Part shown: one piece after another, positions 24,598 through 63,498 of the stretch
Layout: the number at the start of each line of letters is the position of its first letter
Position numbering within the stretch: the first letter of the stretch is position 1
Source: an uncultured virus (IMG/VR IMGVR_UViG_3300044972_001024)
Taxonomy: Duplodnaviria; Heunggongvirae; Uroviricota; Caudoviricetes
Length of the DNA: 64,000 bases
IMG/VR virus record: IMGVR_UViG_3300044972_001024
Strand: one strand, 5' to 3'
Made by a program: the position numbers and the translations under genes
Notes under the pieces: generated by a model
Databases searched by the model: none
Seen by the model: only the letters and a program-made list of their open reading frames with translations
What the model was told of the DNA's origin: nothing

Positions 24598-24626
24598 AAT
24601 AAAATAGGGACCCGAAAGTCCCTATT
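24598..24626 (-). terminator. Intrinsic terminator ending the tmRNA precursor
   Basis: AATAGGGAC-TTTCGG-GTCCCTATT followed by TTATT. Confidence 0.85.
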
Positions 24627-24787
24627 GGTATTTTCTGTTACGAGGTATTTCCTACCCTAAGCAACTTTTTCAAGCGGCTAATGCCCAATTTTCATCGTTA
24701 GCATTTATTGGTTGTTTAGTTTTTACGTCTATCGCTGACGAGTTGTCCATTCCGTTACTTGTTGCCCAATCGAATCCTTTCAGCCCC
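24627..24787 (-). ncRNA. ssrA: tmRNA, coding piece of a permuted two-piece gene
   Basis: 5' GGGGCTGAAAGGATTCGA; ATAAAT-GCT resume site; tag ANDENWALAA-TGA at 24670-24702; stop codon in a hairpin loop. Confidence 0.93.
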
Positions 24788-24916
24788 ATCATAAAGAGAC
24801 TTTCTAATAGTGGCTAACATTTTATTAGCTTCTTTAAGCGACATTTTAGATACATCTTTTGTGTAATGTACTGTTCTGCCGTTTTCAAGCACTATAGTAT
24901 TGTCAATGTAATTCAT
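24755..24916 (-). CDS. Putative 53-aa protein encoded in the tmRNA intervening segment
   Basis: AAGGGA SD 4 nt before ATG; MNYIDNTIVLENGRTVHYTKDVSKMSLKEANKMLATIRKSLYDGAERIRLGNK. Confidence 0.45.
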   Translation of the reverse strand: MNYIDNTIVLENGRTVHYTKDVSKMSLKEANKMLATIRKSLYDGAERIRLGNK

Positions 24917-24928
24917 GTAATCCCTTTA

Positions 24929-25015
24929 TGGTGGAGCTGGCGGTATACGATAACCGCGTCTTGAACACTTTTCTCTTTACTTCTGTCCTGATTACTCAGG
25001 GTTTACAACAATTCT
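24929..25015 (-). ncRNA. ssrA: tmRNA, acceptor piece (upstream of coding piece; 5' end approximate)
   Basis: TGTTCAA-GAC-GCGGT-TATCGTAT-ACCGC-CAGCTCC-A-CCA; pairs with GGGGCTG giving G3:U70. Confidence 0.9.
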
Positions 25016-25141
25016 TTAAAATATGTCATCGCCCATACTTTTAATATCTTCATTATGATTAGACCAATCATAAGTTATAATTTTATAACATGTGTATCCA
25101 ATTATCGGAATCATAATCAATATGAGAAATAATTTATCCAT
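25016..25141 (-). CDS. Small single-TM protein (41 aa)
   Basis: MDKLFLILIMIPIIGYTCYKIITYDWSNHNEDIKSMGDDIF. Confidence 0.45.
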   Translation of the reverse strand: MDKLFLILIMIPIIGYTCYKIITYDWSNHNEDIKSMGDDIF

Positions 25142-51084: not shown

Positions 51085-54000
51085 TCATGGCGCCGTTACT
51101 CTACGTAAGAAAAGTGCCGGGACTGTATTACTTTGACTTAAAGTTTGACTTACCGGTCCACTAATGTCATATTCATACCACCATTGATAGTAATATTCTT
51201 CAGGCAATTGATCTCTATTTAATACACTTTGAATTACTGTACCAGATTCAATTAATTGATTGGTAATTGAACCATTTCTACCACGTAATAGACCAGAAAC
51301 AGTATTAGTTGTCAAATCAATATTAGTAAATTGAATATATTCACTGTTGATCAACAACATATTACCTTCACTGATTGTAATCTCTACTAGTGTTGGACTA
51401 GTAATACCATTAATAGTTATCTTAATGTCATTATAATTAACATATTCAAGCGTAAACGTATTTGGTATACTTAATATTGGATAGGAAGTCATATATCGAG
51501 CAACGTTTAATATATATGCCACACCATCACTATCAGTAGTTACTATTTCTTGTAACGTACTTACTAATTTACTAGCATCGTTAACATGTAATACATCGCT
51601 TATACTATTAGTACTGACAAAATCTTGTGTCAAATATGTTTGAGTATATGGATTGGTATTATAAACTGAAGTGACATATTCATATGTTACATATGGATAT
51701 GTATTGGGATTATAAACTGAATTCTGACCAAATTGATCAACTTGAATTCTAAAATTCAAATAATTTCCTGGGCCTAATGTATCTGGATTTGTAGTAACAT
51801 TAAATTGTAAGAAATCAGTTACCAGACCAGGAATCAATTCTTCTGGTCCATATCCTTCATTGAATGATCCACCCTGAACATCATATGTAGTTGGGTTAGT
51901 CAATTGATTATAGTTAAAATCAGGAGATTGAAGATTTGTATCAAGTTCGGCCGTTGAATTAACATCATATGATGAATATTCAAAATTAACAGAATCATAC
52001 AACTGACCGTCATTATAATTAAATGGGGCGCCAATTGTAGTAGCATTTGGATAAACCACACCACTCATTAACTGTCTAAGATCACGTCCAGTCATGTTGG
52101 CAGTTGGCTCATAAAAGGCAGCAATTCTATCGGCCGCGTTCAATATTGAATTATTACTGTAAATTTGTTCCCACTTATCATAATCAAATATTGTATCATT
52201 ATTACTAACTATACATTGATATAATTTTCCAGCATATGTTACTAAACTTTTACTAAATGTAAATGGCTCTTCTAAAAATAATACATCATTTGAGGTATAA
52301 TTAAAGTTGGCAATTTTCACTGGAAAGTTAAATAATGGATCATAATATATTTCTACTAATGTCGTAGTCATAACTTTGACATAGTAACTAATCGGATTAG
52401 TCCATTCAGTAGAACTCACTTCATAAGCAATAATCTTCTGCCCATTCAATTGTCCAGGAGTTACGGGTGTATACCCATAATTTAATTCTACAAGTACTGC
52501 ACCATCATATGCATATGAGTTTCTCACTTGTACTATCGGAAATGATGCACCTTGAGCTGATGCTAATAAATCAGCGTCCCAATTTGTTCCAGTCCATGAC
52601 AAATATTCCCATGGACTACTTGATGATGTTAACAATGTTGAACTTGCAAGTTTACCAATATCAGTAAATTCTCCTGCATAAATTTGCCCACTATTCCATT
52701 CAGTGATTAAACTACCATAACTTGTTCTATCAAATTTAATAGTAGTCATTAATTCTCTAACTGGCTGACTTGAGGTTAATATTGCTGCTCTGGCAGTAAC
52801 CGCTAATGTATTTTCAGATCCAGAACCTTGTGTTTCTAATGAAACTCGTTCATAATCCATCAAACTAGTTTTGTCAATGTTATAAGCACCCTTAACTGAA
52901 TAATAAAGAGCAATAGTATTAACATCAATTACTCTAACATAATAGTAATTGTTATTGATCAAACCTGTTGGAGATACTGTATTCAATCCAATTGTATACT
53001 TAATTGAATCACCAGTAATAAAACTATGATTTATTATAGTGATAGTATTAAATACCGTATTAACGTCAGTACTGACAAATGTAGAGAATATTGAACTACT
53101 TTCAATTTCAATTATTGGTTGAGTAGCATAACCTGAACCTGAATTAATTACCTGAACTCCCAACAATGATTCATTTATCATAATCGGAACTAACTGAGCA
53201 ACAGTTCTTGGATTTGGATAATTACTATTATTGATTACAGTAATTACTGGTGGTTCTGAATATCCGCGAGCTTTATCTAATACAATTACAGCTGGCAATA
53301 TGGCACTAACTGTTGCATTTGGCATATGATCAGTTGGAGTTGAGTCAATACCACGTTGAATATCTGTCAATATATTTTGTAACTTATCGACATTACTATA
53401 AGAAATTTTCTCATCACCAATATATATAAATCCAGCATCAGGCATTCCATATGTATTTTTAACCGGAATAATTGTGGAACTTGAAGTAATATAGGCCGAT
53501 AATGATGTTAGATTATAAAGTCCGCGTTCATTAGTAATATTCAAACCATAATTTTCAAACCACTGTGTATATTCTGGATCTTGCCATACTGTACTAGTAG
53601 GTAAATATTCTGGGGAATATAAATTTGGTGTAGTATATACTAATTGTGGAGTTTCAAATTGTCCTATACTTGGTACATATTTTGCAGGTAAATCAAAGTC
53701 AGTTACATCTCCTAAGAATGTATCTTGTCCAGGATATACAAATAAGAAATCTTTAATCTTAACATGAAATGGCTTGATCTCATTCAAATATCCGCTTAAG
53801 AATTCTTGATTATCTCTTTGAAATTTCTTGTATGGTAACAATTCACGAACAGTATGAGTAACATCAATCAAACTTGTTTTATTAAGCCATGTTAGATAAT
53901 TTTGTTGTTCTAGTGATTCACTTTGAATATAATTAAACATTAATATCAAACTATTATTACGTTCAATCAACAAATCTTCTATATAAGCCTCTTCATTCAA

Positions 54001-57000
54001 CCAACGAATGATCCAATAAGTTTCTTCATATACTGTATCATCATATAATCCAATATCAAATCCACCAATATCCCAATTAACTGGAGTATTATACAATGAA
54101 TCTGATAATTGAATTGTTCCGTTTTGTAAACCAATTCTATCCCATCCAGTAGCCTCATACCAGGTCCACACTTCGCTATTACCCTGTGAATTGGCTTTTA
54201 CTTTGACAATAATTCCATCTTTTAATCCAATAACAATTTGTTCTGTTCCTGGAAGTATTTGATTTGGCTGAAGTGTTTGTAGATCAGTAACTGTGTTTAC
54301 TTCTAATACAATTTTTGTACTACTACTATATCCAGTGGCCCACCAATCAGTATATGTCCAATAATCTCTTGTATCATATCCAACTCCAACTTTGTTTAAG
54401 AAATATAAACTACGAGTTTCGGCAATAGGGAATTTAATTAGAACTTGATTGGCATAGTTAACATAATTTTGTAAAGCCAATGGGCGATCTATAAACATAC
54501 TTTGTGAATAATCAATACCATAACGAGTCAAAATTGGCAACTTTGAATTTGGTATATATAGTCCAAGACGATTTTGTCCAGCAAAACTATCTAGATATTT
54601 TGCATATAATCCAATTGGATCTTGTTGACTTTCTGTTGGAAATCCAGTTAAGAAATCAGTTGCATTATTTTCTTGAATCAATGTCCAACTTTCATGTTTT
54701 TGATCTAATGTGTTACCAATACGATAACCAATATGTAAAGCACTAGATGAAGAATTGATACTACTTTCACAATTAAATAATCCAACAATGTTAGTAGTAA
54801 TTGCTGCCAAGAAACTAATTCCACTATTAAGTGGGTTAAGTATATATTGACTTAAAGTCAACGGACTTAATGTTTTTCCTGGAGGTATAATATTATAATT
54901 CTTAACCCAGAAGAAATAATCAACAACAATTGCATTGGTTGAGCGATCTAAACTTTGAATCGTAGTATAACTATTAAAATCAACTACATATCCACTACCA
55001 TTATATTGAATTGGAGGAAATGAACTACCTACCCAAGTGTATATGTCGGCCGTACTTCCTGGAAATGCCTTACCCCAATTACTAGCGTTATATGTAGCAC
55101 TTGGTTGATTATAATTCAACATTCGAATACTTGTTGTATCAAGCCACGTAGAACCAATATGTTCAAAACTCCACACGATTCCATCAGAATATGTGGCTGG
55201 ATCAGTTGAACTTATATAATCTAAGTTTGTTTCAACTGCACCTAATAATTTTCCTTGTATTGGATCAATATAATCTAGATAATCTAATGTATTATTACTA
55301 ATAGTATCATAGATAGAAATATTATTTAATCGTTCAACAGAGACCATTGGTAATGGTTTCTTATCTATATACCAACTACTAGTTTGACAATAATTAACAT
55401 ATCCAAAAATTCTTCCAGTACCAGTACTGTACCAATTTGGAGCACCCACAACTATTACACCATCATTATCAACTACACTGGTTCCAAATTTTGGAGTGTT
55501 TGCTATTCCAGTTCTATCTATACTTTGAATATATTGACCAAATACATATTTTCCAGGATTTATAATACTTTCATCAGCCGCCGGTAGATAATCAAATTCA
55601 TATACTACACCAGTGTTTGCAAATGTGTCAATAAATGCTGTAGCTCCATGATCAAAAATAGTAAAATTATTAATTGATATAATAGGATTACAGACTGTTG
55701 GGTCAACTGTATTATAATCAAATGTTGTTTCAGCATATACTGTAGCAGTTGGGTCACTGACTACCAAACTGTCGCGAGTTCCCATAGATACTACAGTTCC
55801 AAAACTTCCAATTGTTGGTAAATTTGGATTAACCATTACTTGTGTATTAACATACAATGTTAATCCCAAATCAGCAAGATTAGATTCTGGTCCAGTAATA
55901 TCAATAATATTATTAATAGTTTCTACTGTATTGTTTATAACCCCAATTTGAAGTATATTACCACTAGCGGCAGCTATAATATTGGTTGGAGTTTGAGTAT
56001 TAATCGATTGAGCTATTTCACTAGCAGTTCCAGAATAACTTACTTTAAATCCATCAATGAAAAAATATCCACTAACTAACCCACTAACTGATCCAACTAT
56101 AGATCCATATTGTTGTCCGCCATTAGTAAAACGATAGACTGCGCCCTGTACGTTTGATACATTGTTTACAGTCTGTAATTCACTTGGACATCCAATTACT
56201 AGTTGAGCACCATATTTGTTAGTAGATACACTAGTACCAAAATTACCACCAACTATTGGATTACTACTCAATAATTTAGTAACGAGATTCATTTCACCAT
56301 AACTTACTTCAATAATACTACCATAGACTGGTATTATATTAAATATAATTCTGCCATCGGAATAGACAATTACATCACTAGTTAATACATCATCAATTAA
56401 TACATCAGCTATAGAATTAGGAATAGTTTCATTAACTGTATAGGTATCACTGATTCCATTAGCCATGAATCTTTGTACACTTCTAGTATATATATAAACA
56501 GCGCCAGATGCAGTCAATTGAGTTGATTCACTAGTTACTAAACTTTCTAATGGGGCACCTACAATTAATTTAACTCCATCTATACTAGTAGCGATTGAGG
56601 TTCCAAATCCGATTGCCGTACTTGGACCAGTAATAGTACTAACATAATCATAATTACCATTGGACATCAATGCCCAAACCGCTATTGTTTTATTAGTAAC
56701 GTTTGAAATATATAACCACTGTCTATCTTCACTAACTGTTATTTGTCCAGTAGTTTCTTGACTAATAGTCGTATATAAAGTAATATATTTACTTGGATAA
56801 ATTACTAGATATACATAAACAAGATTATTAAGTTCATCACTAACATACAAATAATCACCTACTGCAACCATTGCTGTACCAAATGTTGAATTGGTCTGAG
56901 ATATAGTTTGAGTTATTGATTGACTAGTAGTACTGTCAGTATAATAACGATAGATTGTTCCATCAATTGCACTAGCACCGACATATCCTATTTCTGTACT

Positions 57001-60000
57001 GTAAGCGACACTACTACCAAAATCTTGTAAATTTAATTCAGAAGAATCAATATTAATCTCAGTAAAGTTTGGACCACATGACCATACAGCCCATTGATTG
57101 TCTACATCTCTATCAATCCAAGATTTTTTATTATAGTATTCACTATTAAATACTGTACTGTATACTTGATCACTTGCTTGAGTAAATCTTCTAGATACTA
57201 ATTTAAAAGCTAAACCATTACCTTGTAATTGTAATACGGCAGTATCTAATACTTTTGCAATAATTACACTGGTTAATGAATTCACTGCTAAAACTTCGTA
57301 ATAACCATTTATTCTGGAGTCAAAATTAACAATAGCGATTGGATCATATTTTGCCAAATTTGGATTTTTTCCAAAGTTAACAGTAATTGTATTATTTAAA
57401 TTATTAATAATACTTATTACTTGTGTATTGACTGTTTGTGGAGTAAATACATTCCAACTTCCACGATATTTGGCAATCCAAATATTATCATTACGATACA
57501 ATGTATCTATGTTAGTTGTGTCAAATGTATTGTTTAAATCAGTAAGTTCAAAGGCTTTAAATTTTACATCATTTAGATTGACATATCCGGCGCTGGGTAA
57601 ACCACGCTCATATGAATAAACATCATTAAATGGCGGTAAGAAATTTGCAGAAATTGGTGGCATATTCCAGTTAATGATTTCATTCATCATTACTGTTTGT
57701 TGAACACCGCTTACAGACCCATTATCTGAGAATCCCAATAGTGTTGGATTACCAGTTAATTCATTCTGAATCAATAAACATTCAACAAAATTACTGTTAG
57801 ATACACTACCAAATACACTAGTTTTAACTGCCCAATTTTCTTTTACATTATAATCAATTTTACCTTGAGCCAAATTTGCACTCTTAAAAGCATTTGCTAT
57901 TAAGTTGGTTCCTTTTTCTTTAATGATGTTTTTATAAACACCAATTTGAGTAATATCGCTTAATTCTGCATCAGCGAGATATTGTCTTGGTCTATAACCG
58001 ATTAGACTAAATGATAATAGATCGGCATCTAGTTCAAAGTTTGCTCTAGTACTGTCATAATAATACAAACTTTCATATGCATTAGTGCTAGGATTAGGTA
58101 ATAATCCAGTTTTAATTTTATCGTATGTTGTTTGAGTCCATTGTTCATCAAAGAATTCTGATTGTGGTTGAATCAATTGATTAGCAACCCAATATTTATT
58201 TTTATAAGTTACAATTTTTCCACTGGCATACTTAATGTTTGGTAACCATTCTTGAATATTATCTTCATTAATAATAAATCCGCTGGCATTAACATAACCA
58301 TTCCATTCACCAGATTTGTAACCCTGTAATAATAATCTTTGTTGACGTAATCCAGTAACTAAATCATAAATTGTATCATTGAATACGGTATAATTATCAA
58401 ACACCACTGCATGTTCCATACTAGATAAATTAAGATTTGTAAGAGCAATACTATCCCCATCAGTTAATACACCAACAGTAAAACTTTCATTTTCTCTTAC
58501 AATACTAGCATTTTGACTTTGTAATGGTATTAGATTTTGATTTAAAATAAAATTATCTTGTTGAATTGTCAATGGCTGAACCACTAATCCAGGTCTATTA
58601 ACAGTAGCAATTTTAGCAGATGGATTTAAATTAATAGTACTACCAACTTCCCAACTTTGTTCTGCCCAATGCAAAAACTCACGAATCATTTGATCCCAAT
58701 TATATGTAATAGTATCAATTACATAACCAAAAATCATACCTTGATCTACTAGATATTGACCATATGCTTTAAGAAATTCACTAACTCCCTGAACAGTATA
58801 ATATAAATTACCATATGGAATTGTAGTGATTTTGTCTGTATAAAATTCATTATTAACTGTAACTGAAAGATTATTCACCGTTAATGTTTGTGTAAATCCG
58901 GCCTTGGGCACAGCCATATTAAAAAATGGATCACTTTGACTATTACCCCAAACTGTATAACCATCACTAGTACGTTGTACAATAACTGAACTATATACAA
59001 TTTTATCTTCTGATACATTGTCGTACAACAAGACGCTATAACTATTGTCAGGAATTAATAATGTTGTATTTTGAGTATTTGGTGTTGATTTTTCAATCAA
59101 AAATTTCAAGTAATTTTTACTACTAAATCCAGCTAGATTATATGTTAATCTGACATCTAGATTTTTTAATGTAGTAGTAACTTCAGTTGTACCATCAACA
59201 CCACGTTGATTAATGTAATCAACTACCCAATTGATATAACTAGCTTTACTTACACCATTGCCATATACTATAATATCTTGTGGATTTAAATGATAACGAT
59301 CATTATACAAATATTGATTGAATTCAGTATTATATTTGTACAAGTCACGATCAACATTTAAGTTAAAGAATTTTGCTGGTTTAGTTAATGCCAATATACG
59401 CATTAAATCAAATGGATATGAACTACTACGTAGATATGAAGTTTCAGCCGGTCCTTGATCGCCAACAATCCAATTACGATCAAATGTAAATGAATCATAG
59501 TTACCAACTACAGTTGGTAATGGTGATTGTAATGTTCCGGCCGAATTTACTGGCAATACTCTTAATAATTCTGGTCTAACTTTCAATGGATTAATATAAC
59601 TATCACCATTGTTCCATACATAACCTTCACTAATTTCTTGCCACATATATGTATTATCACTAGTATATGGGGCGGCACCATATCTATCAGTCCACCAACT
59701 TGGTTCACTGGTCAATCCTAACATTTCCCATGGGGCATCTGCTGGATTACTAGTATCATAGAACCAATTATATACACCTCTCCAATAACCTTGTTTTAAT
59801 ATTTCACTGTTAAGTATGTTTGTACTTTGATTGTAGTTATATGAAAACTGATTTGATCTATTATATTGTTGTGTTTTATAATCAATACGATTTAAACCAA
59901 CCCATTTTAAGAAATTGGTTCTATATATATCTAAAATTTCACTCTGTGAATATTCAGTGGTTCTAAATTGTCCTGGAATAACTTCATCAGCTGGTAATGG

Positions 60001-63000
60001 TATATCACCAACAACTTTTAAGTTATTATAAATTCTAGTTTCAAATTCTAATAAAACTTTATCACGAAAATCAGATAATTCTTCATCAATATAATCACCA
60101 TAAAGTTTTGTATAACTACCATCGTGTCCTAAAATAAAATAGGTTGGTGTAGTATAAGTATTGTCTAAAATAACACTCGGAATAAAACTTGGGTATAATC
60201 CTAATTTAGTTGGTGTATTGGGACAATATGTTCCATATGTTTGATTATATTCATTAATTGTAATAGTATCACCAACAACAATATCATATGTTATTGTTAA
60301 ATTTGGACTAATATCACTAACAATATAATCCACACCACGTATTAATTGATTAGTTACTGTCTGACCATTAACTGTTGTAGTAATATAAACACCCAACCCA
60401 TAATAGTTGGCTGATGTAAAATCATATGTTCTATACGTTGGTAAAGTAATAGTAGATAATGTAACATTAAATGGATAACTATTAGTTCTATATGGACTAC
60501 CAGTATATAACATGTCACTCCAGAAGAATGCATTTGTACTGTTTCTGGTACTTGAAATTTGATAAAGAATTGTATCCAACATTGTAGATGGAGTGGTATA
60601 TACTGTAAAATCGTTTTGATCAGTTAAATTAATCAACAATGTTTTAAAATTTGTATATTGATCACTGTTGAATTGTAATGCTTCAAATATATTATATCCA
60701 GGTTTACGTAAAAATACACCAGGTAATATCAAACTGGCACTATTTTGAATAATTGCCGTACCGTATCTGTTTAAGTTTCCTAGGTTATAAACATTATTAG
60801 GACCAAATACTGGTCCAATTACGCCAAACGTATTTTGAACTATTGAATCATATTGATTTTTAATATCACCAACGTTAACTGTGGTAATATTTGAATTGAA
60901 TGGATTATTTTGTAAATTACTTGGAATTTCATAATACCCAGTTTTACTAACTTGATCACTAAGCAATGTAATGGTAATTTTATCACCACTGACTGCCGCA
61001 GTTGTCAATGTAACGGTTGTTGTATTATTAAAACTATTAGTAGTAAAAGTATATTCAGAATCATCACTCAGTTCAACATCATTGACATATACATGATGTG
61101 GATCAACAATTGAATCAGTTTTTACTAACACATCACATTGAAAGGAACTTTGTGTTGGTTGAGTAACTGTAAATTGAAATACTTGATATTGAGAACTTTC
61201 AGTATATGCGGTTACCCATCCAGTTTTTTTAGTTGGTATATCAGCAGTGATATAGTCATATACATAACCAATATTAATGTTTGATTCAATAATATTATCG
61301 TTTTGTTGATAGCTAAATGTATCTTCATTTAGATTGACAGTGAAATTAATGTCACCAATACTAACCGAGCTTGAATAACTAATTGGAAAACCTAATATTG
61401 GATCATTTGGTCCTGTACCAACAGTGTACGAAAATAATTTTGTTCCCGCAAATGTTGAACCATTATAGTATAATTGATCACTAAGTGATATGTCATTTAT
61501 ATCATATATGTTAAATAATGGGGCCTGATTAACTGTTGATTTTTGTTGACATTGAATCCATCTAGAATCTACAGAATTAAATCTCCAACTTGTTGATTTC
61601 CATAATGTACCAGATATGATAGTAACTTGATTTTTATCTTGTGCAGTTTCTACAATATTAAGTGCAATTACATTTGAATTTCCTGTACCAACTGGTGCAA
61701 AAGAAACTTCATATATGTTTTGACGAACTAAATTATTAGTATCATGATTAAAAATAATTGTTTGACCAGAAACTAATGGTTGACCATCAATAGTATATGA
61801 TGATTGTCCAACTATTTGAGTAAAGGCATCAGTTGTTGTATTATCAAATAATGAAACGAAACCTAAAGATTTTGTTCCACTATTATAAAGACCAAGATTC
61901 CCATAAAATTCAATAATAGGACGTTGAGCACGAGTACTAGTATTTCCAGATATTAATGTTAATGTACCATTATAAGCGATAGTGGCATTAATAACTTGAA
62001 TATTAAACCAACGATTACTTCTAGACCAGGCATTTAAATCACGACTATTTCTATTGATTGTTATATAATCCGGATATAATGGTACCTCATTTGATTGATC
62101 CCATTCTTTATCGTCCCAATTATAATAATCCCAAGGATAATATGATCCTGGATCATCGCTTTCTACACTACGAAAATCATTAACTAATAATAGATTGATT
62201 GCAGTACCTACACCTTCAACATAATATTCATTATTTTGATATGTTGATGGGACTGTAGATCCTTCAAATATAACTTTAAGACCATTGATAAATGTAACAC
62301 CATTTGGACTTGTATAATTTGTCTTACCTAAAATTTGATCAATGTTAATACTATTAGTAGTATTATTTTCTATTAAATTAATAACACCAACATTAAGTGG
62401 ATTTGACCCATCTTGATAATATAATGTATCTAATACTGCCGAAAGATATGGTATCAATTGAATTGTACCGGTACCATCACGATAGAATGTTCTACCAACA
62501 TATGTAGTACCGCTAGTTACTGTAATTTTTTGAGAATCTGGAATTCCAGTACTTAATGTTAATGTAACGATATCAGTTATTGAATTTACTGATATTGAAT
62601 AAAAATTAATTTGTGAACTTGATTCACCATTATCATAGAACATTAATGTTCTACCATTTAACTGAGTTACACCATCAATATTTCCAATTGATGTCGATGT
62701 TTGACCGTTAATTTCTGCATATGTTAGTGTAGAAACAATATCAACTGTATTGTTTCCGGGCAAATCATATTGTGATTGAGCATCTTTTAATGGAACTTCA
62801 AACGTAACAGTGCCAATGGAATCTCCATTATTTAATACTCCTAATACATCTCTAGTACTAGTATTAGAACTTGCACCATATCCAGAAGTTCCTGGAACAC
62901 CTTGAATCCAGAATTGTGATGATTGATTTACTTCAAATGTATATGTACCACCACGTAACAATGTTATAGATGGATTTTTTTGTACTGAATCATTAATTGT

Positions 63001-63498
63001 ATATCCAGTATCACTGTAGGATACAATATAATTGTCTGATAGATAAATTGTGTTGGTTGATACAGTTACGGCATCTGGACCATATGGTAACCAATAATAT
63101 TGACTATAGTTAACAATCTTATCTAGATCAGCAAAACTATCCCAACTATAATATTCACTTTCAAATAATCTATTATTATTATCGGTAATTGCCCCATTAT
63201 TTTGTAAAGCATTTAACATACCAGGATAATTAATAAAATCTTTTGCAGTTTGAGTATCAGTTTTTAAGAATACAACACTTGGATTCAATTGATAATCATA
63301 GCGGATTTTTGATGGTTCAACTACATAACGATCAGTTGGGTTAATAGAATAGCCATATTTTTGACCAATAAATCCTTCAACTCTACGTAGATCAGGTTGT
63401 TGTACCAACTGATCTAATGTTGCGGCAAGAAACTGAGCATTACTGTCAGTTCTAAAAACTTCAGGAAGAAAATCAAGTGACCGAATTTTTGTTGCCAT
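51085..63498 (-). CDS. Giant virion structural protein (baseplate wedge-like, 4137 aa)
   Basis: Uninterrupted 12.4-kb ORF; FLPEVFRT N-terminus; FG-GAP-like repeats (FGTS..LIVGAP); ATAAATA at 63527-63533. Confidence 0.75.
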   Translation of the reverse strand: MATKIRSLDFLPEVFRTDSNAQFLAATLDQLVQQPDLRRVEGFIGQKYGYSINPTDRYVVEPSKIRYDYQLNPSVVFLKTDTQTAKDFINYPGMLNALQNNGAITDNNNRLFESEYYSWDSFADLDKIVNYSQYYWLPYGPDAVTVSTNTIYLSDNYIVSYSDTGYTINDSVQKNPSITLLRGGTYTFEVNQSSQFWIQGVPGTSGYGASSNTSTRDVLGVLNNGDSIGTVTFEVPLKDAQSQYDLPGNNTVDIVSTLTYAEINGQTSTSIGNIDGVTQLNGRTLMFYDNGESSSQINFYSISVNSITDIVTLTLSTGIPDSQKITVTSGTTYVGRTFYRDGTGTIQLIPYLSAVLDTLYYQDGSNPLNVGVINLIENNTTNSINIDQILGKTNYTSPNGVTFINGLKVIFEGSTVPSTYQNNEYYVEGVGTAINLLLVNDFRSVESDDPGSYYPWDYYNWDDKEWDQSNEVPLYPDYITINRNSRDLNAWSRSNRWFNIQVINATIAYNGTLTLISGNTSTRAQRPIIEFYGNLGLYNSGTKSLGFVSLFDNTTTDAFTQIVGQSSYTIDGQPLVSGQTIIFNHDTNNLVRQNIYEVSFAPVGTGNSNVIALNIVETAQDKNQVTIISGTLWKSTSWRFNSVDSRWIQCQQKSTVNQAPLFNIYDINDISLSDQLYYNGSTFAGTKLFSYTVGTGPNDPILGFPISYSSSVSIGDINFTVNLNEDTFSYQQNDNIIESNINIGYVYDYITADIPTKKTGWVTAYTESSQYQVFQFTVTQPTQSSFQCDVLVKTDSIVDPHHVYVNDVELSDDSEYTFTTNSFNNTTTVTLTTAAVSGDKITITLLSDQVSKTGYYEIPSNLQNNPFNSNITTVNVGDIKNQYDSIVQNTFGVIGPVFGPNNVYNLGNLNRYGTAIIQNSASLILPGVFLRKPGYNIFEALQFNSDQYTNFKTLLINLTDQNDFTVYTTPSTMLDTILYQISSTRNSTNAFFWSDMLYTGSPYRTNSYPFNVTLSTITLPTYRTYDFTSANYYGLGVYITTTVNGQTVTNQLIRGVDYIVSDISPNLTITYDIVVGDTITINEYNQTYGTYCPNTPTKLGLYPSFIPSVILDNTYTTPTYFILGHDGSYTKLYGDYIDEELSDFRDKVLLEFETRIYNNLKVVGDIPLPADEVIPGQFRTTEYSQSEILDIYRTNFLKWVGLNRIDYKTQQYNRSNQFSYNYNQSTNILNSEILKQGYWRGVYNWFYDTSNPADAPWEMLGLTSEPSWWTDRYGAAPYTSDNTYMWQEISEGYVWNNGDSYINPLKVRPELLRVLPVNSAGTLQSPLPTVVGNYDSFTFDRNWIVGDQGPAETSYLRSSSYPFDLMRILALTKPAKFFNLNVDRDLYKYNTEFNQYLYNDRYHLNPQDIIVYGNGVSKASYINWVVDYINQRGVDGTTEVTTTLKNLDVRLTYNLAGFSSKNYLKFLIEKSTPNTQNTTLLIPDNSYSVLLYDNVSEDKIVYSSVIVQRTSDGYTVWGNSQSDPFFNMAVPKAGFTQTLTVNNLSVTVNNEFYTDKITTIPYGNLYYTVQGVSEFLKAYGQYLVDQGMIFGYVIDTITYNWDQMIREFLHWAEQSWEVGSTINLNPSAKIATVNRPGLVVQPLTIQQDNFILNQNLIPLQSQNASIVRENESFTVGVLTDGDSIALTNLNLSSMEHAVVFDNYTVFNDTIYDLVTGLRQQRLLLQGYKSGEWNGYVNASGFIINEDNIQEWLPNIKYASGKIVTYKNKYWVANQLIQPQSEFFDEQWTQTTYDKIKTGLLPNPSTNAYESLYYYDSTRANFELDADLLSFSLIGYRPRQYLADAELSDITQIGVYKNIIKEKGTNLIANAFKSANLAQGKIDYNVKENWAVKTSVFGSVSNSNFVECLLIQNELTGNPTLLGFSDNGSVSGVQQTVMMNEIINWNMPPISANFLPPFNDVYSYERGLPSAGYVNLNDVKFKAFELTDLNNTFDTTNIDTLYRNDNIWIAKYRGSWNVFTPQTVNTQVISIINNLNNTITVNFGKNPNLAKYDPIAIVNFDSRINGYYEVLAVNSLTSVIIAKVLDTAVLQLQGNGLAFKLVSRRFTQASDQVYSTVFNSEYYNKKSWIDRDVDNQWAVWSCGPNFTEINIDSSELNLQDFGSSVAYSTEIGYVGASAIDGTIYRYYTDSTTSQSITQTISQTNSTFGTAMVAVGDYLYVSDELNNLVYVYLVIYPSKYITLYTTISQETTGQITVSEDRQWLYISNVTNKTIAVWALMSNGNYDYVSTITGPSTAIGFGTSIATSIDGVKLIVGAPLESLVTSESTQLTASGAVYIYTRSVQRFMANGISDTYTVNETIPNSIADVLIDDVLTSDVIVYSDGRIIFNIIPVYGSIIEVSYGEMNLVTKLLSSNPIVGGNFGTSVSTNKYGAQLVIGCPSELQTVNNVSNVQGAVYRFTNGGQQYGSIVGSVSGLVSGYFFIDGFKVSYSGTASEIAQSINTQTPTNIIAAASGNILQIGVINNTVETINNIIDITGPESNLADLGLTLYVNTQVMVNPNLPTIGSFGTVVSMGTRDSLVVSDPTATVYAETTFDYNTVDPTVCNPIISINNFTIFDHGATAFIDTFANTGVVYEFDYLPAADESIINPGKYVFGQYIQSIDRTGIANTPKFGTSVVDNDGVIVVGAPNWYSTGTGRIFGYVNYCQTSSWYIDKKPLPMVSVERLNNISIYDTISNNTLDYLDYIDPIQGKLLGAVETNLDYISSTDPATYSDGIVWSFEHIGSTWLDTTSIRMLNYNQPSATYNASNWGKAFPGSTADIYTWVGSSFPPIQYNGSGYVVDFNSYTTIQSLDRSTNAIVVDYFFWVKNYNIIPPGKTLSPLTLSQYILNPLNSGISFLAAITTNIVGLFNCESSINSSSSALHIGYRIGNTLDQKHESWTLIQENNATDFLTGFPTESQQDPIGLYAKYLDSFAGQNRLGLYIPNSKLPILTRYGIDYSQSMFIDRPLALQNYVNYANQVLIKFPIAETRSLYFLNKVGVGYDTRDYWTYTDWWATGYSSSTKIVLEVNTVTDLQTLQPNQILPGTEQIVIGLKDGIIVKVKANSQGNSEVWTWYEATGWDRIGLQNGTIQLSDSLYNTPVNWDIGGFDIGLYDDTVYEETYWIIRWLNEEAYIEDLLIERNNSLILMFNYIQSESLEQQNYLTWLNKTSLIDVTHTVRELLPYKKFQRDNQEFLSGYLNEIKPFHVKIKDFLFVYPGQDTFLGDVTDFDLPAKYVPSIGQFETPQLVYTTPNLYSPEYLPTSTVWQDPEYTQWFENYGLNITNERGLYNLTSLSAYITSSSTIIPVKNTYGMPDAGFIYIGDEKISYSNVDKLQNILTDIQRGIDSTPTDHMPNATVSAILPAVIVLDKARGYSEPPVITVINNSNYPNPRTVAQLVPIMINESLLGVQVINSGSGYATQPIIEIESSSIFSTFVSTDVNTVFNTITIINHSFITGDSIKYTIGLNTVSPTGLINNNYYYVRVIDVNTIALYYSVKGAYNIDKTSLMDYERVSLETQGSGSENTLAVTARAAILTSSQPVRELMTTIKFDRTSYGSLITEWNSGQIYAGEFTDIGKLASSTLLTSSSSPWEYLSWTGTNWDADLLASAQGASFPIVQVRNSYAYDGAVLVELNYGYTPVTPGQLNGQKIIAYEVSSTEWTNPISYYVKVMTTTLVEIYYDPLFNFPVKIANFNYTSNDVLFLEEPFTFSKSLVTYAGKLYQCIVSNNDTIFDYDKWEQIYSNNSILNAADRIAAFYEPTANMTGRDLRQLMSGVVYPNATTIGAPFNYNDGQLYDSVNFEYSSYDVNSTAELDTNLQSPDFNYNQLTNPTTYDVQGGSFNEGYGPEELIPGLVTDFLQFNVTTNPDTLGPGNYLNFRIQVDQFGQNSVYNPNTYPYVTYEYVTSVYNTNPYTQTYLTQDFVSTNSISDVLHVNDASKLVSTLQEIVTTDSDGVAYILNVARYMTSYPILSIPNTFTLEYVNYNDIKITINGITSPTLVEITISEGNMLLINSEYIQFTNIDLTTNTVSGLLRGRNGSITNQLIESGTVIQSVLNRDQLPEEYYYQWWYEYDISGPVSQTLSQSNTVPALFLRRVTAP

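Follow-up and report, generated by a model that had tools for sequence, protein, structure and literature searches.

A small-protein gene probably fills an exchangeable slot in the spacer of a permuted phage tmRNA gene

The DNA analysed here (the window, 64,000 nucleotides (nt)) is IMG/VR record IMGVR_UViG_3300044972_001024 and derives from a large uncultured lake-water phage. Its minus strand carries a circularly permuted, two-piece transfer-messenger RNA (tmRNA) gene, in which the acceptor piece is followed by an intervening segment (the spacer) and then by the coding piece. A 53-codon open reading frame (ORF) starts within the spacer, and the Shine-Dalgarno (SD)-like motif in front of it lies in a helix that closes the spacer. 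Comparison with related sequences led us to conclude that this spacer probably carries a real small-protein gene and is an exchangeable slot with a fixed frame.

Two Rfam models recognize the tmRNA gene on the minus strand, RF04321 (tmRNA_permuted) at 24988-24670 with 78.7 bits against a gathering score of 47, and RF01850 (beta_tmRNA) at 25033-24600 with 86 bits against 84. The permuted order is seen directly in the strand: CAGCTCC-ACCA is followed by 141 nt and then by GGGGCTG, and the two acceptor strands form seven of seven pairs, G3:U70 included (Table 1). Acceptor stems covary among related tmRNAs. The RNase P site is presumed to lie between 24788 and 24787; by analogy with known tmRNA and tRNA processing cleavage would occur there and the spacer would be removed at tmRNA maturation. 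The spacer starts with TAAAGGGATTAC-ATG. The ATG begins 12 nt past the CCA with AAAGGGA 4 nt upstream of it. Codons 1-43 fall within the spacer; the mature tmRNA 5' region supplies codons 44-53. A first-pass annotation of the window had correctly described the 141-nt segment between the CCA end and the GGGG start, as well as a 53-codon frame that crosses the mature 5' end and whose stop codon ends 33 nt inside the coding piece.

An open frame alone is only mildly unlikely to arise by chance (405 of 20,000 shuffled spacer interiors, 2%, yield an ATG or GTG frame spanning the spacer), and it is the comparative evidence that is decisive. A word-indexed search of 5.8 billion proteins returned 12 cluster representatives, the window's own protein and 11 others that are 53-70 amino acids (aa) long and 74-91% identical to it. 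Of the first 44 columns of the family alignment, 30 are invariant, and no indel interrupts the 44. Past G44, where the tmRNA starts, the tails diverge (AERIRLGNK, ADQVSIGQQVTEWTTRHR and others), because the tmRNA itself carries indels. When 1.84 billion representatives were searched exhaustively with a profile, no more than six matches had E up to 0.001. Two of these, P0077 and P0078, are further members of the family, again with a tail encoded by the tmRNA, and a third is a fragment covering that tmRNA-encoded part only. P0082 is a distant 43-aa homologue with its own ending. P0079 and P0080 (E 4e-6 and 9e-5) are repeat proteins, which were regarded as motif or composition matches and not as relatives. 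All 14 family variants, being protein-database entries among which broken copies could not appear, are open, lack indels in codons 1-44 (132 nt) and read through the junction, though the flanking tmRNA does carry indels across the same variants. Searching the 50,697 deposited phages with the 44-aa core by tblastn gave no match.

A scan of viral contigs with the family alignment recovered the four known loci and, in addition, the GC-rich viral contig L241. There a 52-aa ORF begins 21 nt after a tRNA (Rfam tRNA, 1131-1215). It reads MKVVHVDVSKMSLKDRRKLLDRIRKQIDG... and has the pattern VHxDVSKMSLKxxxKxLxxIRKxxDG in common with the window ORF, to which it is 52% identical over 33 residues (pairwise BLASTP, E 1e-7); with P0082 the BLASTP E is 2e-9. 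The residues common to L241 and the window ORF are specified by different codons. This implies that conservation is at the protein level, and outside any tmRNA spacer. The start of the homologue is preceded by GAGGG (L241:1131-1395), and the small gene is again placed directly behind a processed RNA end.

An AlphaFold2 model of the window ORF, based on a shallow alignment of 12 sequences, has a mean predicted local distance difference test score (pLDDT) of 68.3 and consists of strands at 3-9 and 15-21 and a helix at 27-42, which together form a beta-hairpin plus helix. Per block of 10 residues the pLDDT is 73, 75, 80 and 74, then 50 and 32, with residues 44-53 below 50. Thus, the predicted fold ends at the spacer boundary and the tail is predicted to be disordered. 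The product would be a small, soluble, mildly basic protein of beta-beta-alpha type with a folded core of about 43 residues. The 14 open variants, the L241 homologue and the predicted fold together indicate that the window ORF is very probably a gene, so that the first-pass claim of a protein-coding ORF in the spacer is most likely right.

The same annotation placed the SD-like motif in an 11-bp helix that extends the acceptor stem, and folding as well as covariation bear this out. CATAAAGGGAT pairs with GTCTCTTTATG over 11 bp with two G:U pairs, leaving an unpaired AT between the 3' strand and G1. In both the minimum free energy (MFE) and the centroid folds (ViennaRNA; -46.6 kcal/mol, z -4.64) this closing helix is stacked on the acceptor stem. 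Among 63 distinct related sequences the register C75:-3, A76:-4 and +i:-(i+4) for i = 1-11 is 86% paired, as against 46-52% for control registers slid by 1-2, and each of the columns +4 to +11 shows at least four standard pair types. The final four spacer bases are TGAT in 46 of the 63. Judged by its covariation, the helix covering the SD-like motif is real and conserved.

To place the window's spacer among others, tmRNA relatives were gathered via two sequence patterns without reference to spacer content. The coding-piece pattern gave 36 viral and 74 metagenome stretches and the acceptor-piece pattern at least 121 stretches; the CCA end and the 5' end were located by acceptor complementarity. 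In the first set 88 of 111 items could be mapped (the 23 misses were 13 items that are not tmRNA-like and 10 that are truncated or variant) and in the second 99 of 121. This gave at least 187 mapped loci with at least 142 distinct spacers, of which 140 were counted after two tandem spacers had been dropped. ARAGORN found a permuted tmRNA in 31 of 35 related loci submitted, with tags of the same type as the window's, and RF04321 reached its gathering score or more in 19 of 20 ORF-bearing loci; the remaining one is truncated by a contig end.

The spacer interior proved hypervariable in content and in length (25-382 nt). A slot frame was defined as an ATG or GTG at +5 to +26 that is open to the spacer end, with the expectation taken from shuffles. 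Such frames were present in 7 of 14 spacers under 60 nt (7.2 expected), 23 of 49 of 60-80 nt (14.8), 15 of 41 of 80-100 nt (7.6), 10 of 18 of 100-130 nt (1.7), 12 of 14 of 130-200 nt (0.3) and 4 of 4 of 200 nt or more (0.0). Below 100 nt full-span frames are therefore near chance (45/104, 29.6 expected), whereas at 100 nt or more a slot ORF occurs in 26 of 36 spacers against 2.0 expected. An SD-like motif accompanies 29 of the 41 ORF-bearing spacers of at least 80 nt and only 1 of the 36 others. The median GC of the interior is 0.32 with an ORF, the value of the window as a whole, and 0.45 without. Despite this higher GC the ORF-less interiors fold no better than shuffles (median z -0.37).

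The relatives contained 59 ORFs of at least 20 codons, which fall into 42 BLASTP families. A family was retained if an SD-like motif lies upstream of its start or if its spacer measures at least 100 nt, leaving at least 25 families; 17 families without the motif were set aside as probable chance frames. A pair with a spacer under 100 nt (L139/L154), in which a 22-aa membrane-type peptide has its stop at -1, may be real. The starts of the 25 families are at +11 (11 families), +12 (12 families), +9 and +24, and the SD-like motif is found upstream in 22. Membrane-type peptides make up 10 of the 25. Sixteen families use as their stop the TGA within the conserved TGAT, leaving 1 nt to the mature 5' end, where one in three would be expected (p 0.0016; the families are not fully independent, given their common helix ancestry). 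Four more stop 12 nt before the spacer end, and five, the window's among them, read through into the tmRNA. A pool of one pair from each of six families contains 29.5 synonymous changes per 105.9 sites and 51.5 non-synonymous changes per 434.1 sites (pN/pS 0.43, binomial p 2e-4). In the five-member MKYIF family the stop at one position is TGA, TAG or TAA.

One cargo is a 118-aa ORF in a 382-nt spacer (L098). It has 64 homologues with 41-95% identity and an invariant FVMEGRHRMVA motif; the ending ...SVSL, which is dictated by the helix, occurs only in the two closest of those aligned. None of 13 viral loci coding for this domain lies in a tmRNA context, and tblastn found no match to the ORF among the 50,697 deposited phages. 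Its AlphaFold2 model (pLDDT 89.7, pTM 0.80) has only ParB N-domains or sulfiredoxins as top Foldseek matches, the best with E 5e-3 and none passing 1e-3, while Pfam and PHROGs give weak ParB-like matches only. From the model, this cargo family appears to be a ParB/sulfiredoxin-fold protein. A survey of homologous loci had been proposed with the first-pass annotation as its check, and on ORF presence, SD-like motif and helix covariation its outcome agrees with that annotation.

Several observations weigh against the coding interpretation. Evidence for selection within the window's own family is thin, since the window and L017 ORFs differ by two synonymous and one non-synonymous change. In a variant contig from lake run X20, eight of the 14 differences are listed, two synonymous and six non-synonymous, the latter all conservative (I37V, T36A, N31Y, K20Q, V16I and T15K). 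The comparison of substitution rates that was also proposed at the outset speaks for coding in the six-family pool but is mixed for the window's family. The codon-usage score of 9.5 is modest, being reached by 3.7% of stop-free shuffles and by 19% of stop-free non-coding frames of real genes; the absence of that score from 10,000 off-frame windows was discarded as an effect of stop codons. When Pfam and PHROGs were searched with 14 spacer ORFs nothing significant was obtained for the window ORF (best DUF3929, E 0.096), Foldseek against PDB gave its model no structural neighbour (best E 0.94), and the best ESM Atlas cosine score (0.78) was uninformative. RNA run X23 contributed one contig, covering 24957-25021 of a relative, with the spacer outside it. 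Only 10 of 39 window genes examined have an SD-like motif in the 20 nt ahead of their start, which suggests a weak SD dependence of the phage's host; the motif in the spacer may accordingly reflect the helix no less than initiation. Part of the association between SD and ORF may come from common descent of the helix type. Finally, ORF-bearing interiors fold better relative to shuffles than ORF-less ones (median z -1.74 and -0.37), the reverse of what was expected.

It could be argued from this that the spacer is an untranslated RNA, conserved for folding or processing, in which the open frame is incidental. That a comparable frame arises in 2% of shuffles, that the window's interior folds somewhat better than its shuffles (z -2.08), that SD use in the genome is low and that the population variant has six non-synonymous against two synonymous changes would all fit this idea. 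It does not readily explain a protein-level homologue with different codons in another context, the lack of indels in 132 nt over 14 variants next to tmRNA that has them, or a predicted fold that stops where the spacer does. Coding is likewise indicated by the slot statistics, by a relative's ParB-fold cargo and by the GC of ORF-bearing interiors, which equals that of the window and differs from that of ORF-less ones. An untranslated spacer is thus considered very unlikely.

The content of the slot appears to be exchanged. The spacers of the window and L017 are 97.9% identical and their two tmRNA pieces 89% and 93.7%. L014 and L092 have an acceptor piece 89% identical to the window's, the same figure as for L017, with unrelated spacers of 74 and 80 nt. 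One upstream flank was found paired with spacers of 62, 88, 111 and 172 nt. Contigs of two lake runs provide the corresponding evidence from the population: in X22 a contig matches 24768-24789 and 24929-24965 and has 109 other letters in place of 24790-24928, and in X20 a loose end at 24929 runs on into an MKYIF-type spacer. Residue 45 of the window family varies (A, D, E, P, G, S), which suggests that one and the same cargo has come to sit next to a number of distinct acceptor stems. Immediately upstream of the tmRNA the window has a 41-aa membrane-type ORF that is 42% identical over 26 residues to the spacer ORF of L155 (L155:716-838; pair E 5e-8), so that one small-gene family is present both inside and outside the slot. 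Besides a switch, the first-pass annotation had offered a cargo-gene slot, and this is strongly supported by the 25 unrelated families and by the spacer swaps on near-identical tmRNA backbones.

Tandem spacers were observed in L015 and L109, with two closing-helix cassettes each. Those of L015 are separated by a fused mini acceptor, GGTGGTG-CTCCACCA, and those of L109 by a minihelix of acceptor and T-arm. Both arrangements look as if tmRNAs with different spacers had recombined. A T-arm-like GGTTCGAAYCC occurs in one L015 cassette and in the L032 spacer.

Exchange of this kind is also what would be expected if the cargo were a selfish or neutral passenger. The spacer would then be the one insertion-tolerant site of a conserved gene prone to recombination. 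Small ORFs bringing their own ribosome-binding site (RBS) would pile up there and be shuffled by homologous recombination via the conserved tmRNA halves, with no coupling to maturation or rescue. Such an account agrees with ours on gene status and differs on its meaning. It is in line with cargo that is unrelated from phage to phage (25 families), with the many relatives that have short ORF-less spacers, some a hairpin of about 25 nt, with one family lying inside and outside the slot, with swap boundaries that coincide with the conserved flanks and with a TGAT ending that is also found on ORF-less spacers (46/63 overall). Less easily accommodated are the start, held at +11 or +12 in 23 of the 25 families, the SD built into the helix and the stop exactly at the -1 TGA in 16 of 25. 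The latter suggests cargo adapted to the frame, a test that is weakened by common helix ancestry. We consider mere passage possible, though not favoured, and continue to prefer a small-protein gene in a slot with a fixed frame.

Across the lineage the slot has the following design. A closing helix of 11-13 bp lengthens the acceptor stem; its 5' strand provides the SD-like AAGGA or AAGGG, with the start codon 11-12 nt after the CCA, and its 3' strand gives the last codons and in most cases a TGA stop that leaves 1 nt to the presumed cleavage site. What lies between is exchanged from phage to phage. A likely mechanism starts from the order of transcription: the SD would be made about 130 nt ahead of its complement, so that ribosomes could start on the emerging precursor and produce the cargo protein. 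Formation of the helix and the acceptor stem would then sequester the SD, after which tRNA-type processing would free both tmRNA pieces and the spacer would be discarded. That translation and maturation exclude each other is a reasonable expectation from the predicted fold.

In the window's family the frame misses the TGA and continues into the tmRNA for 9-26 codons. Consequently, only the uncleaved precursor would yield a complete protein that ends at a normal stop, and cleavage during translation would leave a non-stop complex. The proposal in the first-pass annotation that 5' cleavage turns the spacer into a non-stop message thus holds structurally for this family (14/14 read through), but not for the general design, in which 20 of 25 families stop before the cleavage site. 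That annotation drew from it a possible self-regulating switch. In such a self-sensing device RNase P cleavage would make the translated spacer non-stop, the product would be tagged and degraded, and the cargo level would report or regulate tmRNA maturation and rescue capacity. A tag ending in LAA, the junction crossed by all 14 window-family variants and by five of 25 families, and a conserved DG at the junction that aligns with the DG of the free-standing homologue in L241 would suit such a device. As a general design it is not supported, as 16 families stop 1 nt, and four more 12 nt, before the cleavage site. The read-through tail of the window's family is moreover variable in frame and length and predicted to be disordered, and looks like a by-product. 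A switch as the explanation of the slot is therefore improbable; for the window's family, which always reads through, it is possible, but with a tail of this kind, and with 20 families whose stop precedes the site, read-through is more plausibly a side effect that is tolerated.

One might also envisage that the excised spacer itself is the messenger, persisting as a stem-closed, end-protected small RNA that is translated at a low level. SD, ORF and stop all lie inside the spacer in 16 of 25 families, and after excision the two ends of the RNA would be base-paired through the closing helix. For the window, the excised RNA would be without a stop codon and its SD would be locked in the helix. 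In one studied analogue, according to the part available of the paper, an excised rRNA spacer is degraded rapidly (PMC4990558). On these grounds a role as excised messenger seems improbable as well. A more elaborate version of our proposal is a kinetically gated, bifunctional pre-tmRNA that would serve first as a one-shot cargo messenger, while the roughly 130 nt up to the complement of the SD are being transcribed, and afterwards as tmRNA precursor. In read-through families RNase P cleavage in mid-translation would create a non-stop complex that is resolved by the same tmRNA, and the yield of untagged cargo would report the balance of maturation and rescue during infection. This elaboration is unlikely.

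Table 1. Positions of the tmRNA gene, its spacer and associated elements in the window
Feature	Position	Strand	Description and basis
Whole circularly permuted two-piece tmRNA gene	24600..25033	(-)	acceptor piece, spacer, coding piece; Rfam
Acceptor (3') piece	24929..24990	(-)	strand reading and RF04321 alignment; 5' limit approximate
T-arm	24957-24940	(-)	5-bp stem, 8-nt loop TATCGTAT
Acceptor 3' strand CAGCTCC	24939-24933	(-)	
Discriminator A73	24932	(-)	
Encoded CCA	24931-24929	(-)	
Intervening segment (spacer), 141 nt	24788..24928	(-)	boundaries by acceptor complementarity
Closing helix, 5' strand CATAAAGGGAT	24920..24930	(-)	C75, A76 and spacer +1..+9
SD-like AAAGGGA	24927-24921	(-)	within closing-helix 5' strand
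53-codon ORF MNYIDN...	24755..24916	(-)	open reading frame; stop TAA at 24757-24755
Closing helix, 3' strand GTCTCTTTATG	24790..24800	(-)	also codes for K39-D43 of the ORF
Mature 5' end = acceptor 5' strand GGGGCTG	24787-24781	(-)	complementarity to 24939-24933 and Rfam alignment
Tag reading frame	24702-24670	(-)	GCT AAC GAT GAA AAT TGG GCA TTA GCC GCT TGA = ANDENWALAA*; Rfam alignment
Terminal GC-rich hairpin, then T run TTTTATT	24603..24626	(-)	coding-piece 3' end or terminator; hairpin called on the plus strand, T run read on the minus strand
41-aa membrane-type ORF	25016..25141	(-)	just upstream of tmRNA; BLASTP homologue of L155 spacer ORF

ARAGORN called no tmRNA gene in the window and so missed the permuted tmRNA, probably because of its non-canonical T-arm. 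The 8-nt loop TATCGTAT is not of the GTTCRANYC type, the canonical T-loop having 7 nt. L048 and L055 have the same variant T-arm with a compensatory change in the stem. A 40-codon frame (24670-24792, minus strand) runs from the ATGATG at the spacer end, crosses the tRNA-like domain and shares its last codons and stop with the tag frame; similar open frames are present in relatives and it is probably incidental. Among the relatives a minimal form with a hairpin spacer of about 25 nt was seen in eight loci (L059, L108, L116, L120, L130, L206, L215 and L218), where the 3' end is CCACCT, so that the final A of CCA is not encoded. In L122, L132/L190, L219 and L231 the T-loop is broken right after GGTTCGAC or GACGCAAGGG by unrelated sequence, which may represent T-loop introns or insertions.

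The search pattern had five matches across 185,579 bacterial and archaeal species genomes, none of them a tmRNA, and blastn of the locus against deposited phages gave only one 97-nt stretch, in Synechococcus phage BUCT-ZZ01 (L247, ON615601.1 116268-117764). In this phage ARAGORN calls a permuted tmRNA with tag ANDETFSMALAA that is absent from the features of the record; an annotated coding sequence, UTS52133.1, overlaps the acceptor piece and is probably spurious. Its spacer of about 111 nt holds no slot ORF.

The window has a GC content of about 32% and contains genes for a phage DNA polymerase, thymidylate synthase and tail-fibre proteins. At least four genes of radical-SAM type follow one another at 33.3-42.7 kb, and 51085-63498 encodes a virion protein of 4137 aa. 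G001 is the nearest viral record by sequence. Near-identical DNA is present in lake-water metagenome contigs: among the matches listed, 22 runs hold at least half of the sampled words, seven of which may be the source sample.

What appears to be new here is a permuted tmRNA gene whose spacer probably serves as a standardized coding cassette. The spacers of two-piece tmRNAs have hitherto been treated as discarded linkers; here they would constitute an expression cassette, filled with diverse small genes, whose constants are an RBS in the processing helix, the start position and a stop at the cleavage site. Folding, RNase P processing and translation would then compete naturally within a single molecule, the precursor of a stable RNA that is also an mRNA. 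This raises the question whether phages couple an accessory protein to ribosome-rescue capacity. For annotation it matters that the slot genes fall within an annotated RNA gene and that long spacers cause ARAGORN to miss the tmRNA altogether. The fixed frame could also serve in engineering as a compact scaffold for co-expression of a peptide and a stable RNA.

The RNA itself belongs to a known type. Like the two-piece tmRNAs of RF04321 and of the betaproteobacterial type RF01850, it consists of an acceptor piece, a spacer and a coding piece, and it shares with them G3:U70, an encoded CCA, a tag ending in ALAA and, by inference here, removal of the spacer. Two-piece tmRNA and its Caulobacter-type processing were reportedly described by Keiler and colleagues in 2000 and by Sharkady and Williams in 2004. 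In the known forms the spacer is a discarded intervening sequence, whereas in the window's lineage it holds protein genes with an RBS in the closing helix. Spacer contents noted in the available part of one account are a tRNA-Ala gene and a repetitive element (PMC11915505), and in the full texts on two-piece or permuted tmRNA that were searched no description of protein genes in a tmRNA spacer was found. Phages that carry ssrA are listed in PMC4131195, as its accessible portion indicates. Permuted ssrA has been reported for aquatic myophages, namely OM43 phage Melnitz and pelagimyophages, and two-piece forms account for 53 of 133 unique phage tmRNA structures, 50 of the 53 being aquatic (PMC9004378, as far as its text is accessible). 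Melnitz-type phages resemble the window's phage in being aquatic and having a complete permuted ssrA; the account given of them, in the same portion of that paper, concerns a glutamine riboswitch and host transition and not coding spacers. A tag-containing small ORF in S. meliloti is, from the section available, not a spacer ORF (PMC10117765).

Protein genes nested in a tmRNA gene and absent from the mature RNA are also known from group I introns with homing-endonuclease genes in the T-loop (PMC11915505, in the part at hand). The window ORF differs in lying between CCA and G1, the natural ends of the permuted gene, and in not encoding an endonuclease; none of the Rfam matches in the window is to an intron family. 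The hiding of the SD of a tiny ORF recalls another system. In hok-type fold-back-inhibited mRNAs the distant 5' and 3' parts pair with each other and so conceal the SD of a very small membrane-peptide ORF. The slot resembles them in this respect, and 10 of its 25 cargo families are of membrane type. It differs in that no antisense partner was seen, in that the pairing is the processing helix of a stable RNA and in that the window's cargo is predicted to be soluble.

The nearest published analogue that could be verified, in the part available of its description, is the ORF-bearing intervening sequence in the 23S rRNA of Coxiella burnetii. This carries an S23p ORF that is decaying and apparently not made in vivo, and the sequence itself is viewed as a selfish element that arrived by horizontal transfer (PMC4990558). 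Like the window's spacer it is closed by a stem, excised from a stable-RNA precursor and provided with an ORF. The window ORF is not of the S23p type, as its host RNA is a tmRNA and Pfam and PHROGs assign it to no family. Moreover, the Coxiella spacer, as far as that source describes it, belongs to another RNA, is processed by RNase III and has a single ORF family, whereas the window's lineage combines a tmRNA and tRNA-end processing with many families: unrelated, selected ORFs with a built-in RBS.

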